The notes: generated by a model from the letters alone, not told the origin. DNA of 14,910 nucleotides from Candidatus Methylomirabilis sp. (GCA_041498975.1 JBGQJI010000055.1:1-14910), one strand, 5' to 3'. Numbered from the stretch's first letter, positions 1 to 3,860 are shown. Made by a program: numbers and translations.

Positions 1-1257
1 AGGATCGACGGCTTTACGATCTCTCATATCCTAGTGCTGGAGGTTACTGATCCCATGGCGGTTCAGAAGCTGTCGGGATCGGTCAAGTCGCTGGGGGGAG
101 GGTTCGCGGTCACCGTCGCGGTGCCCGGGTCCGGGACGCAGACGCTCTGGGCCTTTACCGAGGCCCGGGTCGCCTCCCCGGCGACGCTCACGGCCAATCA
201 GCCGTCCACGTGGCATCAGGCGGGGCCGGGGGCGGACCTCGTCATCATCGCCCATGAGACCCTTCTCGAGAGCGTGGGGCCGCTCAAGGCCCTTCGAGAA
301 GGGCAGGGATACTCGGTTGCGGTGATCGACGTGGAAGACCTCTACAACGAGTTCAGCTATGGGCACAAGAACCCATGGGCGCTGAAGGACTTTTTGAGCC
401 GGGCCAGCACCCAGTGGCAGAGGCCGCCGCGCTTTGTGCTGCTGGTGGGCGATGCCAGCCTGGATCCACGCAACTACCTGGGGCATGGGGATTTCGACTT
501 CGTGCCCACCAAGCTGGTGGATACGGCCTCTCTCGAGACCGCGTCGGATGACTGGATTGCCGACTTTGTGGGCGACGGGATCCCGACGCTGGCGGTCGGG
601 CGATTGCCGGTCCGCACGGCGGAGGAGGCCGCTGCGGTCGTGGCAAAGCTTCTCAGCTACGAGCAGGCAGGTGGAGGCCATGGCGTCGTACTCGTGTCGG
701 GTATCAACAGTAACTTCGACTTCGATGGGGCCAGCGGTCAGCTTCGGGCGTTGATTCCGTCCGGGATCAGCGTCCAGGAGATCCACCGTGGCGGGCCCGA
801 TGGCGCCACCGCGAAGCAGGAACTGATCGACAGCATCAACCATGGGCCGCAGCTCGTCAACTACGCGGGCCACGGCTCCGTGGATCTGTGGGGCGCGGGC
901 CTGCTGACCGCCGCCGACGCCAGCGCCCTCAGCAATAGTCAGCCGTTGCCGGTCTTCGTGTCGATGACCTGTCTGAACGGGTACTTTGTGGATCCGGTGC
1001 TAGAGAGTCTGGCCGAGGCGCTCTTGAATGACCCCCAGGGCGGGGCCGTGGCGGTCTGGGCCTCGTCGGGGTTGACCGATCCGGAGTGGCAGTTCCTCAT
1101 GGACCAAGCGCTGTTCCAACGGCTGTTCACCACCAGTTCAAGCGGTCAGTCGCTCACGTTGGGGGAGGTGATGGTTCAGGCGAAGGCGGCGGTTCCCGAT
1201 CGTGATATTCGCCGAACGTGGATCCTGTTCGGCGATCCCAGCATGCGGCTCAAGTGA
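1..1257 (+). CDS. C25 family cysteine peptidase (gingipain/PorU-like catalytic domain), 5'-truncated by the window edge
   Basis: Frame is open from base 1 (RIDGFTISHIL...) to TGA 1255-1257. C25 motifs: LYNEFSYG, FVLLVGDASLDPRNY, ASDDW, LAVGRLP, VNYAGHGS (His codon 871-873), SMTCLNG (Cys codon 970-972), terminal WILFGDPSMRL. Confidence 0.9.
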   Translation, partial: RIDGFTISHILVLEVTDPMAVQKLSGSVKSLGGGFAVTVAVPGSGTQTLWAFTEARVASPATLTANQPSTWHQAGPGADLVIIAHETLLESVGPLKALREGQGYSVAVIDVEDLYNEFSYGHKNPWALKDFLSRASTQWQRPPRFVLLVGDASLDPRNYLGHGDFDFVPTKLVDTASLETASDDWIADFVGDGIPTLAVGRLPVRTAEEAAAVVAKLLSYEQAGGGHGVVLVSGINSNFDFDGASGQLRALIPSGISVQEIHRGGPDGATAKQELIDSINHGPQLVNYAGHGSVDLWGAGLLTAADASALSNSQPLPVFVSMTCLNGYFVDPVLESLAEALLNDPQGGAVAVWASSGLTDPEWQFLMDQALFQRLFTTSSSGQSLTLGEVMVQAKAAVPDRDIRRTWILFGDPSMRLK

Positions 1258-1329
1258 CGAGGCGCGTGACCGACTGTCTTTGAGGGATATGACGTGAATT
1301 TACCTCGGCTCAAGCGACCGTCAACGTGA

Positions 1330-2226
1330 ATGAAAAAGCTGGACCGCCTGGGCTGGGCGGCCGGTCTATCCTGCATCAGTTACGGAGCGCGGATAGGCAT
1401 CCGGGTTAACACTCCATCGGCCCTGGAACCGCTGGTCGAGCGCTTCCCGCCGGGCTGGAAGCTTGCCCCGTCGCCGGTCGTGGACCGCTTGTACTCTGTG
1501 ATCGTCGGTGGCTCGGTGGCGCCCCATCACGTGCGTCGCTTCAATGTGCTCTACGGGAATATTGAGACACTGGCTCGGTCGATGGAGCTCGACCAGGTCT
1601 TCGACAGCTTTGAATCGAACCTTCAGCTCTACGTGGCGGAGACGGCGAGGCGCAGGGTATTCGTCCATGCGGGCGTCGTCGGCTGGGGAGGGCAGGCCAT
1701 CGTCATCCCTGGACGTAGCTTCAGCGGCAAGACGACCCTGGTGGCTGAGCTCGTACGGGCTGGGGCAACCTACTACTCCGATGAATATGCGGTGTTGGAT
1801 GGCCGTGGGCGCGTGCATCCCTACCCGAAACCGATGTCGATACGGCAACCGGTGACCGGGAAGCAGAAGAAGCACCCGCCTGAAGCACTAGGCGGTCTCT
1901 CAGGAGCCAAGCCTTTGCCGGTGGGGATGGTCGTCGTAAGCGAGTACAGGCCAGGGGCGCGGTGGCGCCCCCGTCTGCTCTCGGCGGGGCAGGGGGCGCT
2001 GGCGCTCCTATCCAATGCGGTATCGGCCCGGCGACAGCCGCACGTCGCGCTTGCCACACTGAAGCGGGTGGTGTCTCAGGCGCCGGTTCTCAAGGGTGTG
2101 CGAGGCGAGGCCAAGGAAGTGGTCGATTCGTTACTCAAGGGCTTCAGGGGCGGAGCGGGCGTCAGTTCCGATACATCGCGAAGGAGTTCTGGGAAGGCCG
2201 TTACCAGTGTCCGGGAGGTAAGATGA
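1330..2226 (+). CDS. HPr kinase-related P-loop Ser/Thr kinase
   Basis: VHAGVV followed by Walker A GRSFSGKTT (from 1711) and YYSDEYAVL, the HprK-like catalytic pattern. TGA stop overlaps the next ATG (ATGA 2223-2226). Confidence 0.85.
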   Translation: MKKLDRLGWAAGLSCISYGARIGIRVNTPSALEPLVERFPPGWKLAPSPVVDRLYSVIVGGSVAPHHVRRFNVLYGNIETLARSMELDQVFDSFESNLQLYVAETARRRVFVHAGVVGWGGQAIVIPGRSFSGKTTLVAELVRAGATYYSDEYAVLDGRGRVHPYPKPMSIRQPVTGKQKKHPPEALGGLSGAKPLPVGMVVVSEYRPGARWRPRLLSAGQGALALLSNAVSARRQPHVALATLKRVVSQAPVLKGVRGEAKEVVDSLLKGFRGGAGVSSDTSRRSSGKAVTSVREVR

Positions 2227-2708
2227 AAGAAAGGGTAGATCGATTAGTGCCTCATGCGCGGAAAGATGGGCTGGTGGTTCAAGAGCTGGCAGAGGAACTG
2301 CTGGTCTATGACCTGGAACGGCACAAGGCCCACTGCCTGAATCGCACCGCCGCCTGGATTTGGAAGCACTGTGACGGCCGGACGACTGTGGCAGAAATCG
2401 CCCGGCTTCTGCAAGCAGAGTTGAAAGGACCCGTAGATGAGGAAATGATCTGGTTTGCGGTGGATCAACTGGGGAGAGACCACCTGTTGAGAGAGCGCAT
2501 TCCGCGCGCCACGGACACGGTAGGGATGTCGCGGCGGGAGTTGGTGAAACAACTCGGCGTGGCGGCGATCGTCGCGTTGCCGTTGGTCACCTCAATTATA
2601 GCACCGACAGCGAGCCAGGCGGTATCTTGTACTCCCTCCGGTCAACCATGCGGCACTCCCGCCCAGTGCTGTACGCCCCTCTGCAGTGCTGGCACCTGCG
2701 GCACATAG
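2223..2708 (+). CDS. PqqD/RRE-domain protein fused to a Tat-like signal segment and a Cys-rich C-terminal peptide (putative RiPP precursor, 161 aa)
   Basis: True start is likely ATG 2223 (GGAGG upstream, coupled to the kinase stop) rather than 1962. Residues ~10-90 are PqqD-like (ELLVYDLERHKAHCLNRTAAWIWKHCDGRTTVAEIA). Then MSRRELVKQLGVAAIVALPLVTSIIAPTASQA and VSCTPSGQPCGTPAQCCTPLCSAGTCGT. Confidence 0.85.
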   Translation: MKERVDRLVPHARKDGLVVQELAEELLVYDLERHKAHCLNRTAAWIWKHCDGRTTVAEIARLLQAELKGPVDEEMIWFAVDQLGRDHLLRERIPRATDTVGMSRRELVKQLGVAAIVALPLVTSIIAPTASQAVSCTPSGQPCGTPAQCCTPLCSAGTCGT

Positions 2709-2759
2709 GTGCTGTCCTCTCAACCCTAGTCTTTCCTTCTCCCTGCCTCCTAGCTCACG

Positions 2760-3860
2760 ATGGCACAAACCTCGACGACCATAGCTGAGGCGTCCACGAG
2801 GAACTCACGCGGCCGTCTGGTAGCACTGGCTCTTGCTGGAGCCTGGCGTCGCTCACCCACGGCACCGGAGATCTCCGCCGAGGAGTTGGTCGAGGTGACT
2901 CCGCTGCTTCTCGGATCGGGGGCGGGGGCGTTGGGGTGGTGGCGGGTTCGCCACTCCGATCTGCGATCATCTTCAGCGGCCTTGGAGCTTCAGCAAGCGT
3001 ACCGCCTCTGTACCCTGCATGCTGCCATCCACGAACGAGAAATCGAACAGGTTTTCGTGCTTCTCCGCTCGGCGGGCGTGGAGCCGATACTCGTGAAGGG
3101 CTGGGCAATCGCTCGGGTTTACCCTGAGGCGGGGCTTCGTCCTTACGGAGATATCGACCTGTGCGTCCGGCCGGAACAGTACCTGACTGCACGGGGAGTG
3201 CTGGAGAGTCCGCGGGGCAGGGGGTATTGGGTGGATTTGCACGAGGGCTTGGTCAAGCTGGATGACCGAGACCTGGATGACGTATATGCCCGCTCGCAAC
3301 TCGTGAAGCTCGGGGAGGTGGACGTCCGGGTGCTGGGACCGGAGGACCACCTGCGCGTCCTGTGCGTGCATCTGTTGCGCCATGGCGCTTGGCGTCCCCT
3401 GTGGCTGTGTGATATCGCGGCGGCGGTGGAGTTCCGGCCGGCGGATTTTGACTGGGATCGTTGCCTGAGTAGCAACTCGCGGCGGGCGGATTGGGTCGCT
3501 TGCAGTATCGGCCTGGCGCATCAACTCCTCGGGGCGCAGGTGGACGACACGCCCGTCGCATGGAGGGCGAAACACCTACCAACCTGGCTCATCCCGAATG
3601 TCCTGGAGCAGTGGGAGACGCCATACCCCATGTGCCAGGCGCCGATGAGATACCCCGAGCCGATGGCAACCTACGTGCGCCATCCCAATGGTGCATTCCA
3701 GGCGCTTCGCAAGCGCTGGCCGAATGCCATCGAAGCGACCGTTAGCGTGGAGGGGCCGTTGAATGAACTGCCAAGGCTTCCGTTTCAGCTCGCTCATTGC
3801 CTCTCGCGCGCCGCGAGGTTCTTGACGCATCTGCCGACATTGCTCCGGGAGCAAAAATGA
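2760..3860 (+). CDS. Nucleotidyltransferase family protein (NTP_transf_5-like)
   Basis: PILVKGWAIARVYPEAGLRPYGDIDLCV (KG...R...GDxD), VDLH, and EDHLRVLCVHLLRH...WLCDI motifs typical of this family. Confidence 0.85.
   Translation: MAQTSTTIAEASTRNSRGRLVALALAGAWRRSPTAPEISAEELVEVTPLLLGSGAGALGWWRVRHSDLRSSSAALELQQAYRLCTLHAAIHEREIEQVFVLLRSAGVEPILVKGWAIARVYPEAGLRPYGDIDLCVRPEQYLTARGVLESPRGRGYWVDLHEGLVKLDDRDLDDVYARSQLVKLGEVDVRVLGPEDHLRVLCVHLLRHGAWRPLWLCDIAAAVEFRPADFDWDRCLSSNSRRADWVACSIGLAHQLLGAQVDDTPVAWRAKHLPTWLIPNVLEQWETPYPMCQAPMRYPEPMATYVRHPNGAFQALRKRWPNAIEATVSVEGPLNELPRLPFQLAHCLSRAARFLTHLPTLLREQK

Follow-up and report, generated by a model that had tools for sequence, protein, structure and literature searches.

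Why should a kinase and a nucleotidyltransferase of the kinds that tailor lasso peptides flank a small gene whose product carries both a peptide-recognition domain and a cysteine-rich tail? The question is posed by the start of a 14,910-bp contig (C55) from Candidatus Methylomirabilis sp. (GCA_041498975.1 JBGQJI010000055.1). We refer to this entire contig as the window, and to its source metagenome-assembled genome (MAG; 2.68 Mb, 84.9% complete) as G000. Four co-oriented open reading frames (ORFs) lie on its plus strand, at 1-1257, 1330-2226, 2223-2708 and 2760-3860. They correspond to the 3′ part (418 aa) of a C25 cysteine peptidase gene (PF01364), truncated by the contig start; a 298-aa P-loop kinase of the HprK/PEPCK fold (KIN); a 161-aa protein (PRE); and a 366-aa nucleotidyltransferase (NTase) of the NTP_transf_5 family, PF14907 (NT). 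The genes are separated successively by 72 nt, by a 4-nt overlap (2223-2226) and by 51 nt. In the overlap, the ATG of PRE and the TGA of KIN share the sequence ATGA, and a GGAGG lies 6 nt 5′ of the ATG. The close-set arrangement and the kinase-precursor overlap described in the initial annotation of this DNA, made from the sequence alone, are thus confirmed. DNA 5′ of base 1 is unreadable because the contig ends there.

The answer we favour is that KIN, PRE and NT form an undescribed tailoring and export module resembling those of peptides synthesized ribosomally and modified post-translationally (RiPPs), PRE being the precursor. We hold this view tentatively, at a little under an even chance. 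PRE would then unite a RiPP recognition element (RRE), a leader that doubles as an export signal of the twin-arginine translocation (Tat) type and a six-Cys core.

Three segments of the PRE polypeptide

The N-terminal part of PRE matches PqqD of Pfam (PF05402; residues 26-70, E 4e-10, 40.3 bits vs. a cut-off of 23.4). In an AlphaFold2 (AF2) model built from 120 sequences (overall pLDDT 80.4), residues 10-95 (2250-2507) are confidently predicted as a winged-helix domain, in blocks of pLDDT 87-94. Its best counterparts in the Protein Data Bank (PDB) are two lasso peptide B1 proteins bound to their leaders, TbiB1 (TM 0.77, rmsd 2.3) and 6jx3 (TM 0.81), with PqqD also retrieved. By its modelled fold, the domain is an RRE of the lasso B1 type, which bears out the earlier proposal that the precursor contains an RRE. 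No match to the PqqD partner model of HPr-rel-A was obtained at E≤0.01. Two invariant Cys, C38 and C50, lie within the domain beside H37 and D51 (2331-2336 and 2370-2375) and could form a metal or disulfide site; we know of no such pair as a typical feature of PqqD.

A variable linker joins the RRE to the predicted signal/leader segment (2529-2621), which consists of a twin-arginine-like motif, SRRELVK (2529-2549), a hydrophobic stretch, P120-x-V-T-S-I-x-A-P128 (2580-2606), and an S-Q-A site (2613-2621). Among the 120 aligned sequences the motif reads S-R-R-E-[LVM]-[VM]-[KR], with S103 conserved in 81%, R104 in 100% and R105 in 99%. In the hydrophobic stretch, P120 and P128 are conserved in 100%, S124 in 99% and V122 in 98%, and T123 and I125 are near-invariant. 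The stretch ends in an AxA-type site, A-x-Q-A133, with A133 in 97%. The segment fits the Tat pattern, an S/T-R-R-x-F-L-K-like consensus followed by a moderately hydrophobic region and an AxA site. Its Kyte-Doolittle 19-mer peak is 2.05, PRE has a weak match to formate_TAT (E 0.0078) and TatC is present in G000. RREs take up a leader peptide as an extra beta strand; AF2 renders residues 122-126 as a beta strand rather than a helix, a prediction of modest confidence (pLDDT about 59-70). If cleavage occurred after A133, P120 and V122 would occupy positions -14 and -12, matching in register the Pro(-14) and Leu(-12) that PMC10368454 gives for the YxxPxL leader motif of lasso precursors. This match is suggestive but may be a coincidence.

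The predicted core (28 aa, 2622-2705) contains six Cys, all invariant, in the spacing C-6-C-5-CC-3-C-4-C (AF2 pLDDT 83-85), which falls within the consensus ranges of the inhibitor cystine knot (ICK), a fold defined by I-IV, II-V and III-VI disulfide connectivity. This is the commonest pattern among 66 cores compared (26/66); 57 of them have six Cys, and variants have 8-12 Cys or doubled modules. The window core has no acidic residue and ends in Thr. Against the Pfam knottin families it gave a single, non-significant match, to Conotoxin_I2 (E 0.37). Some relatives do pass family cut-offs, namely P0008 for Toxin_12 (24.4 vs. 21) and P0013, P0032 and L077 for UPF0506 (>23.2). The initial annotation's putative knottin-type tail is supported by its spacing and by these relatives.

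The core diverges faster than the rest of PRE in many lineages. In 106 pairs with leaders at least 90% identical, the identity of non-Cys core positions averaged about 0.5 and fell as low as 0.14; between the window and P0002 it is 0.92 for the leader and 0.22 for the core. PRE also occurs in tandem copies, at L013, L056 and in G005. The second copy at L013 (L013:3575-4111) lacks about 22 N-terminal RRE residues, overlaps the end of the first copy and has a different Cys framework; as a duplicate it may be in decay or have recombined. Two longer relatives carry extra modules. In P0347 (292 aa) the Cys-rich tail is followed by Peptidase_S74, an intramolecular chaperone with self-processing activity (2e-11), and P0314 (338 aa) has an additional C-terminal module with a weak intein/Hint-like match below the cut-off (E 0.0017). 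Among proteins shorter than 88 aa, a word-limited search returned five PqqD fragments and no stand-alone peptide of signal plus knot.

Distribution of PRE and its enzymatic partners

The PRE family is large: a word-indexed search at E≤1e-3 gave 1,545 proteins (88-282 aa), and an exhaustive one at E≤1e-30 gave 1,715 representatives at 50% identity. A search of the ESM Atlas returned unnamed or PqqD clusters only. Across species-representative genomes, 277 stretches encode PRE relatives, and we examined 77 of these loci. Most belong to Blastocatellia or Pyrinomonadaceae, and a few are labelled Methylomirabilota, Nitrospinota or 'uncultured'.

Linkage was scored on the 42 PRE copies flanked on each side by at least 8 kb of sequence. 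KIN lies directly upstream in 24, NT lies downstream in 27 and C25 is found within 8 kb in 30; all three partners accompany 16 copies and none accompanies 7. Every one of the 42 KIN and 51 NT genes found near PRE is on the PRE strand, at median gaps of 97 and 52 nt, respectively. A second sample comprised 61 genomes of the window's order, one of which (G027) holds none of the cassette genes. Strong PRE matches were found in G000, G005, G021, G029, G031 and G053, and strong KIN matches in G000, G005, G021, G031 and G053, i.e. in five of the six PRE holders and in none of the other 55 genomes. C25 was present only in G000, G029 (partial) and G049. The closest relative of the window cassette, L013 (KIN 83% identical), has a reductase instead of C25 upstream and two PRE copies.

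Chance cannot plausibly account for the arrangement, given its recurrence in dozens of genomes. From these linkage and distribution data, we conclude that KIN-PRE-NT is the conserved core of the cassette and C25 a frequent but non-obligatory accessory. The initial annotation had proposed the co-occurrence of all four genes; this holds for KIN, PRE and NT, but C25 is not a core member.

In five acidobacterial genomes that have a PRE-NT-C25 locus without KIN, exactly one KIN gene is encoded elsewhere. At three sites, L106-L108 (G062:C15, G061:C22 and G064:C4), the detached KIN forms part of a conserved block with an OPT transporter, a gamma-glutamyltranspeptidase and an S9 peptidase. An apparent KIN-PRE fusion at L072 was rejected, as the translation contains a stop codon between the two genes. 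A distant kinase-PqqD pair was also seen in the window's order, at G025:C68:8810-9528, where a weak kinase match (2.8e-12) adjoins a weak PqqD match (6.4e-4).

KIN has no Pfam family match. Its best NCBIfam hit, TIGR04352, is below threshold and covers residues 84-172 only (4.9e-16, 58.7 bits vs. a cut-off of 200). Its AlphaFold model (41-sequence alignment, pLDDT 87.8) retrieved ATP-PEPCK (4e-6) and HprK/P (4e-4 to 1.5e-3) with Foldseek. The kinase motifs are a His region (1660-1674), the Walker A sequence GRSFSGKTT (1711-1737) and SDE (1777-1788). Residues H113, G128, G133, K134, D151 and E152 are invariant in the 41 sequences, and their spacing is that of the H148-G163-G166-G168-K169-S170-D186-D187 motif described for BsfK in PMC10368454. 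There are more than 7,697 relatives of KIN; among the 120 matches listed, every source name is 'hypothetical protein'. NT matches PF14907 with 108.9 bits (4e-31) and contains the motif YGDIDL (3144-3161); G130-D131-x-D133, D159 and H161 are conserved in at least 95% of 49 sequences. Searching PDB chains with the KIN and NT sequences gave nothing meaningful (best E 0.47 and 0.3, respectively).

The C25 domain of the window matches PF01364 with 279.6 bits (6e-83). Its catalytic His (GHGS, 868-879) and Cys (MTCLNG, 964-981), H291 and C324, are conserved in at least 95% of 42 aligned domains. Full-length relatives have 1,000-1,900 aa and are giant secreted proteins with the domain at their very C-terminal end; one of them, at L015, has a signal-peptide-like N-terminus (a single N-terminus read). 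By their conserved catalytic motifs, KIN, NT and C25 all look active. That C25 serves as the leader peptidase of the cassette is only a guess.

A proposed mechanism and its competitors

By analogy with lasso systems, we propose that the RRE of PRE binds the protein's own PxVTSIxAP leader-like stretch in cis in the cytoplasm and recruits NT and, much as BsfB1 recruits BsfK, the HprK-like kinase. KIN would phosphorylate a Ser or Thr, either within the core or close to where leader and core join, the candidates being S124 or T123, position 135 and the Ser of a CCS sequence. NT might then extend or replace the phospho mark, either by nucleotidylation or, as reported for pseudomycoidin, by phosphoglycosylation. 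The internal twin-arginine-like signal would carry the C-terminal tail across the membrane, and cleavage at the AxA site, by signal peptidase or by a secreted C25, would free a peptide of about 28 aa that could oxidise to a three-disulfide knot. The nearby giant secreted proteins, C25 and others, together with polysaccharide-export genes, suggest a site of action for the peptide at the cell surface or in the matrix. The RRE fold, the kinase fold, the NTase motifs and the genetic coupling aside, we infer the steps of this scheme by analogy.

A bolder proposal, possible but more doubtful still, is that these genes define a new class of RiPPs, represented chiefly in Acidobacteriota and extending to MAGs labelled Methylomirabilota or Nitrospinota. 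Its members would be bacterial knottins with their own lasso-B1-type RRE, and their leader a twin-arginine signal masked by the RRE until KIN and NT install a phospho-, phosphoglycosyl- or nucleotidyl mark. Its cores would be diverse and number in the thousands, with ties to giant secreted C25 proteases and to polysaccharide export. Such a class, if real, would constitute a large untapped reservoir of disulfide-knotted, enzyme-tailored secreted peptides in hard-to-culture soil and sediment bacteria. It would reveal a new design principle, in which a single polypeptide combines its cargo with a recognition domain and an export signal, and would provide a function outside lasso peptides for two widespread orphan families, the HprK-related kinases and the PF14907 nucleotidyltransferases.

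Several observations weigh against PRE as a tailored precursor. The modification, cleavage and export of PRE are predictions from sequence and analogy. Within the cassette, KIN is not adjacent to PRE in 18 of the 42 full-flank copies, and C25 accompanies PRE in two of the six holders in the order (genomes 70-85% complete). The twin-arginine-like motif begins at residue 103, behind a folded RRE rather than at the N-terminus, which is unusual, and the strand modelled at residues 122-126 is of modest confidence. Modification sites are a further difficulty. The only near-invariant hydroxyls, T123 and S124, lie in the hydrophobic stretch; no Ser or Thr is invariant inside the core, where CCS occurs in 56/66 cores. 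The last core residue is Ala in 27, Ser in 6 and Thr in 3 of the 66, i.e. a C-terminal Ser is not conserved. Because Ser is last in only 6/66 cores, the paeninodin-type C-terminal Ser cannot be the general site, and the phosphorylation of such a residue is not supported.

The evolution of the core is also less clear-cut than the initial annotation had expected. The RRE and SRR segments are indeed conserved, and the core is the faster-evolving part in many lineages, but it is not uniformly hypervariable, and some cores are 100% identical across species despite dS above 1. Estimates of dN/dS (NG86), many with saturated dS, gave no omega above 1 for leader or core, and for these reasons we do not claim positive selection. 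Two paralogues at L065 (3113-3589 and 10001-10474) differ by a dS of 0.11 in the leader and 0.93 in the core. This pattern suggests recombination rather than selection, either the leader having undergone gene conversion or core cassettes having been swapped.

The wider neighbourhood supplies another class of objection. Clustering of 687 ORFs encoded within 7 kb of PRE at 78 loci gave as recurrent families PRE itself (69), NT (51), giant C25-type proteins (51; this cluster also includes giant proteins without a C25 domain, e.g. at L070), KIN (42) and TPR proteins, some with CBM_4_9 (30), followed by Wzy_C (22), FecR-like (19), GT4 (15), Wzc (10) and Wza (7). A dedicated transporter does not recur there. 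The gene order is permuted and co-directional, as in GT4-Wzy_C-TPR-FecR-TPR/CBM-KIN-PRE-NT-C25 or C25-KIN-PRE-NT-TPR/CBM-Wzy_C-Wza-Wzc. The window is of the latter composition with its downstream block inverted: a possible extended neighbourhood on the minus strand (6070-12245) contains, by Pfam, TPR+CBM_4_9 (6070-7434), Wzc-like (7367-9718), Wza-like (9795-10835) and weakly FecR-like (10884-12245) genes, whose relatives occur at 30, 10, 7 and 19 of the 78 loci, respectively. Elsewhere in G000, on contig C29 (L098, C29:4000-23900), there is a second kinase set. It comprises an HprK-like kinase (L098:7069-8184, minus strand), a stand-alone PqqD (8205-8702, minus) and two NTP_transf_5 genes (2328-3614, minus, and 17339-18409, plus). 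The PqqD matches lasso_PqqD_Bac below its cut-off (9e-16), and the paralogues of KIN and NT are about 30-33% identical to those of the window, over parts only. Many GT2/GT4 glycosyltransferases, ATP-grasp proteins, a radical SAM (rSAM)/SPASM-like gene and a Wzx-like flippase surround the set. Polysaccharide-export and surface-protein genes thus recur near PRE, and these neighbours and the C29 set allow a function in the cell envelope with another substrate.

This possibility is best formulated by taking PRE as a bitopic membrane protein, in which one transmembrane helix links an RRE-like domain in the cytoplasm to a small ectodomain rich in disulfides. Together with KIN and NT it would serve a locus for surface-protein and exopolysaccharide assembly, as adaptor or regulator, and the enzymes would have some other substrate. 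The length of the hydrophobic stretch would suffice for a membrane helix, the envelope genes near PRE are mostly co-directional, the C29 kinase, PqqD and NTases sit among glycosyltransferase genes and a flippase, and 'orphan' PRE genes often come after giant secreted proteins. However, a near-invariant AxA site follows the hydrophobic stretch, and prolines flank an invariant motif within the supposed helix, where AF2 gives a strand. The ectodomain, moreover, would be tiny, ICK-spaced, often swapped or fast-diverging and tandem-duplicated. We consider this explanation unlikely, with a chance of roughly one in five.

Rather less probable again is that the tail is exported and knotted without modification by KIN or NT, the RRE masking the signal before export in the manner of a cis chaperone or proof-reader, and KIN and NT regulating this step or acting on another target. 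The core has no invariant acceptor residue, KIN is detached from PRE in some genomes and the RRE is tentatively predicted by the model to contact the hydrophobic region of the signal, all of which would suit such a scheme. It is harder to reconcile with the strict co-occurrence of KIN and PRE, with their translational coupling, and with the precedent for RRE-assisted peptide phosphorylation by this type of kinase (PMC10368454).

The remaining two readings are less likely than those in which PRE is a membrane adaptor or the enzymes have another substrate. Knottins are often protease inhibitors, and the Cys-rich tail might be dedicated to inhibiting, or partnering, the C25 peptidase or the giant secreted protein encoded next to it. 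C25-PRE pairs that lack KIN and are 17-60 nt apart do exist (L026, L030, L042, L051 and L065), and several such pairs can share one locus. But C25 was not found in four of the six PRE holders of the order, nor is it beside PRE in the closest relative, L013, and the RRE, KIN and NT would be left unexplained; we regard this role as improbable. That the enzymes instead tailor a conventional lasso peptide, with precursor, cyclase and B2 protease encoded 5′ of the contig or elsewhere, is very improbable: KIN, the RRE and NT do correspond to the accessory set of phosphorylated lasso clusters, and the DNA upstream cannot be read, but the RRE is always fused to a Cys-rich tail, no family resembling a lasso cyclase, B2 or rSAM protein recurs near PRE at the 78 loci, none appeared among the genes scanned with Pfam at ten loci (up to nine genes each; G000 was not searched for PF00733), and the B2 protease family Transglut_core3 (PF13471) has no match in G000, at its 84.9% completeness. 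This agrees with the initial annotation, which noted no lasso cyclase or B protease in the window.

The strong terminator initially placed at the end of the cassette, at 3860, is a real hairpin followed by a U-run, but lies at 4112-4157, about 250 nt past the last cassette stop and between convergent genes; its folding energy is -32.3 kcal/mol (z -8.2), and 0/200 shuffles fold equally well. A consensus terminator scan did not report it on the plus strand. The gene that converges on the cassette from the other side (4212-5492, minus strand) encodes a DnaJ + SnoaL-like protein; the same neighbour is found at L013 (70% identity) and was not found at acidobacterial loci. Three further ORFs, 5489-5887 (minus), 12425-13021 (plus) and 13018-14025 (minus), match no Pfam family even at E≤1 and have no relatives at the 77 loci. 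A tRNA-Glu(CTC) at 14271-14346 (plus) overlaps the mechanical ORF 14095-14610.

Comparison with known systems

A review (PMC8498205) describes the phosphorylation of lasso precursors by HprK-like kinases and the addition of hexoses to the phosphate by PsmN-type NTases, and agrees with what the initial annotation stated of paeninodin and pseudomycoidin. In the bsf system, BsfK phosphorylates core Ser3, accepts Thr as well and is strongly accelerated by the RRE protein BsfB1 (PMC10368454). The cassette shares with these phosphorylated lasso clusters (paeninodin PadeK, pseudomycoidin PsmK/PsmN and BsfK/BsfB1/BsfN) an HprK-like kinase with H...GxxxxGK[ST]...D[DE] spacing, a PqqD-type RRE of lasso B1 fold and a PF14907-type NTase, the enzymes being likened by motifs and descriptions. 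It differs in that its neighbourhood has no lasso cyclase, B2 protease or ABC exporter, that the RRE is fused to the putative substrate and that the leader is predicted to double as a twin-arginine-like export signal. Its core, too, is six-Cys and ICK-spaced, with neither an Asp/Glu ring acceptor at position 7-9 nor a conserved C-terminal Ser.

HPr-rel-A, in which a TIGR04352 kinase A is paired with a PqqD partner, offers a second parallel. The pairing of kinase and PqqD is the same, TIGR04352 is the best NCBIfam match of KIN, and G000 has a stand-alone set of this kind in the C29 glycosyltransferase locus. The window genes, in contrast, fall below the curated cut-off (KIN) or are unmatched by the partner model (PRE).

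Eukaryotic ICK toxins, such as conotoxins and spider toxins, resemble PRE in their C-C-CC-C-C spacing and in having a conserved pre/pro region ahead of a faster-diverging mature peptide, and some PRE relatives pass the Toxin_12 or UPF0506 cut-offs. Unlike the toxins, PRE is bacterial and has an RRE before its core, and the window core itself has no significant Pfam match. The C25 peptidase shares its fold and conserved His/Cys dyad with gingipains and PorU. It differs in scoring below the PorU equivalog cut-offs (199.8 vs. 420 and 119.7 vs. 450 bits), and so falls outside that family, and in the position of the domain, at the very C-terminal end of giant secreted proteins.

Full-text literature searches turned up no account of a Cys-rich exported peptide with an RRE fused to it. 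On the reading favoured here, the cassette would belong with RRE-guided peptide tailoring, a kind of system already known from the lasso clusters above.

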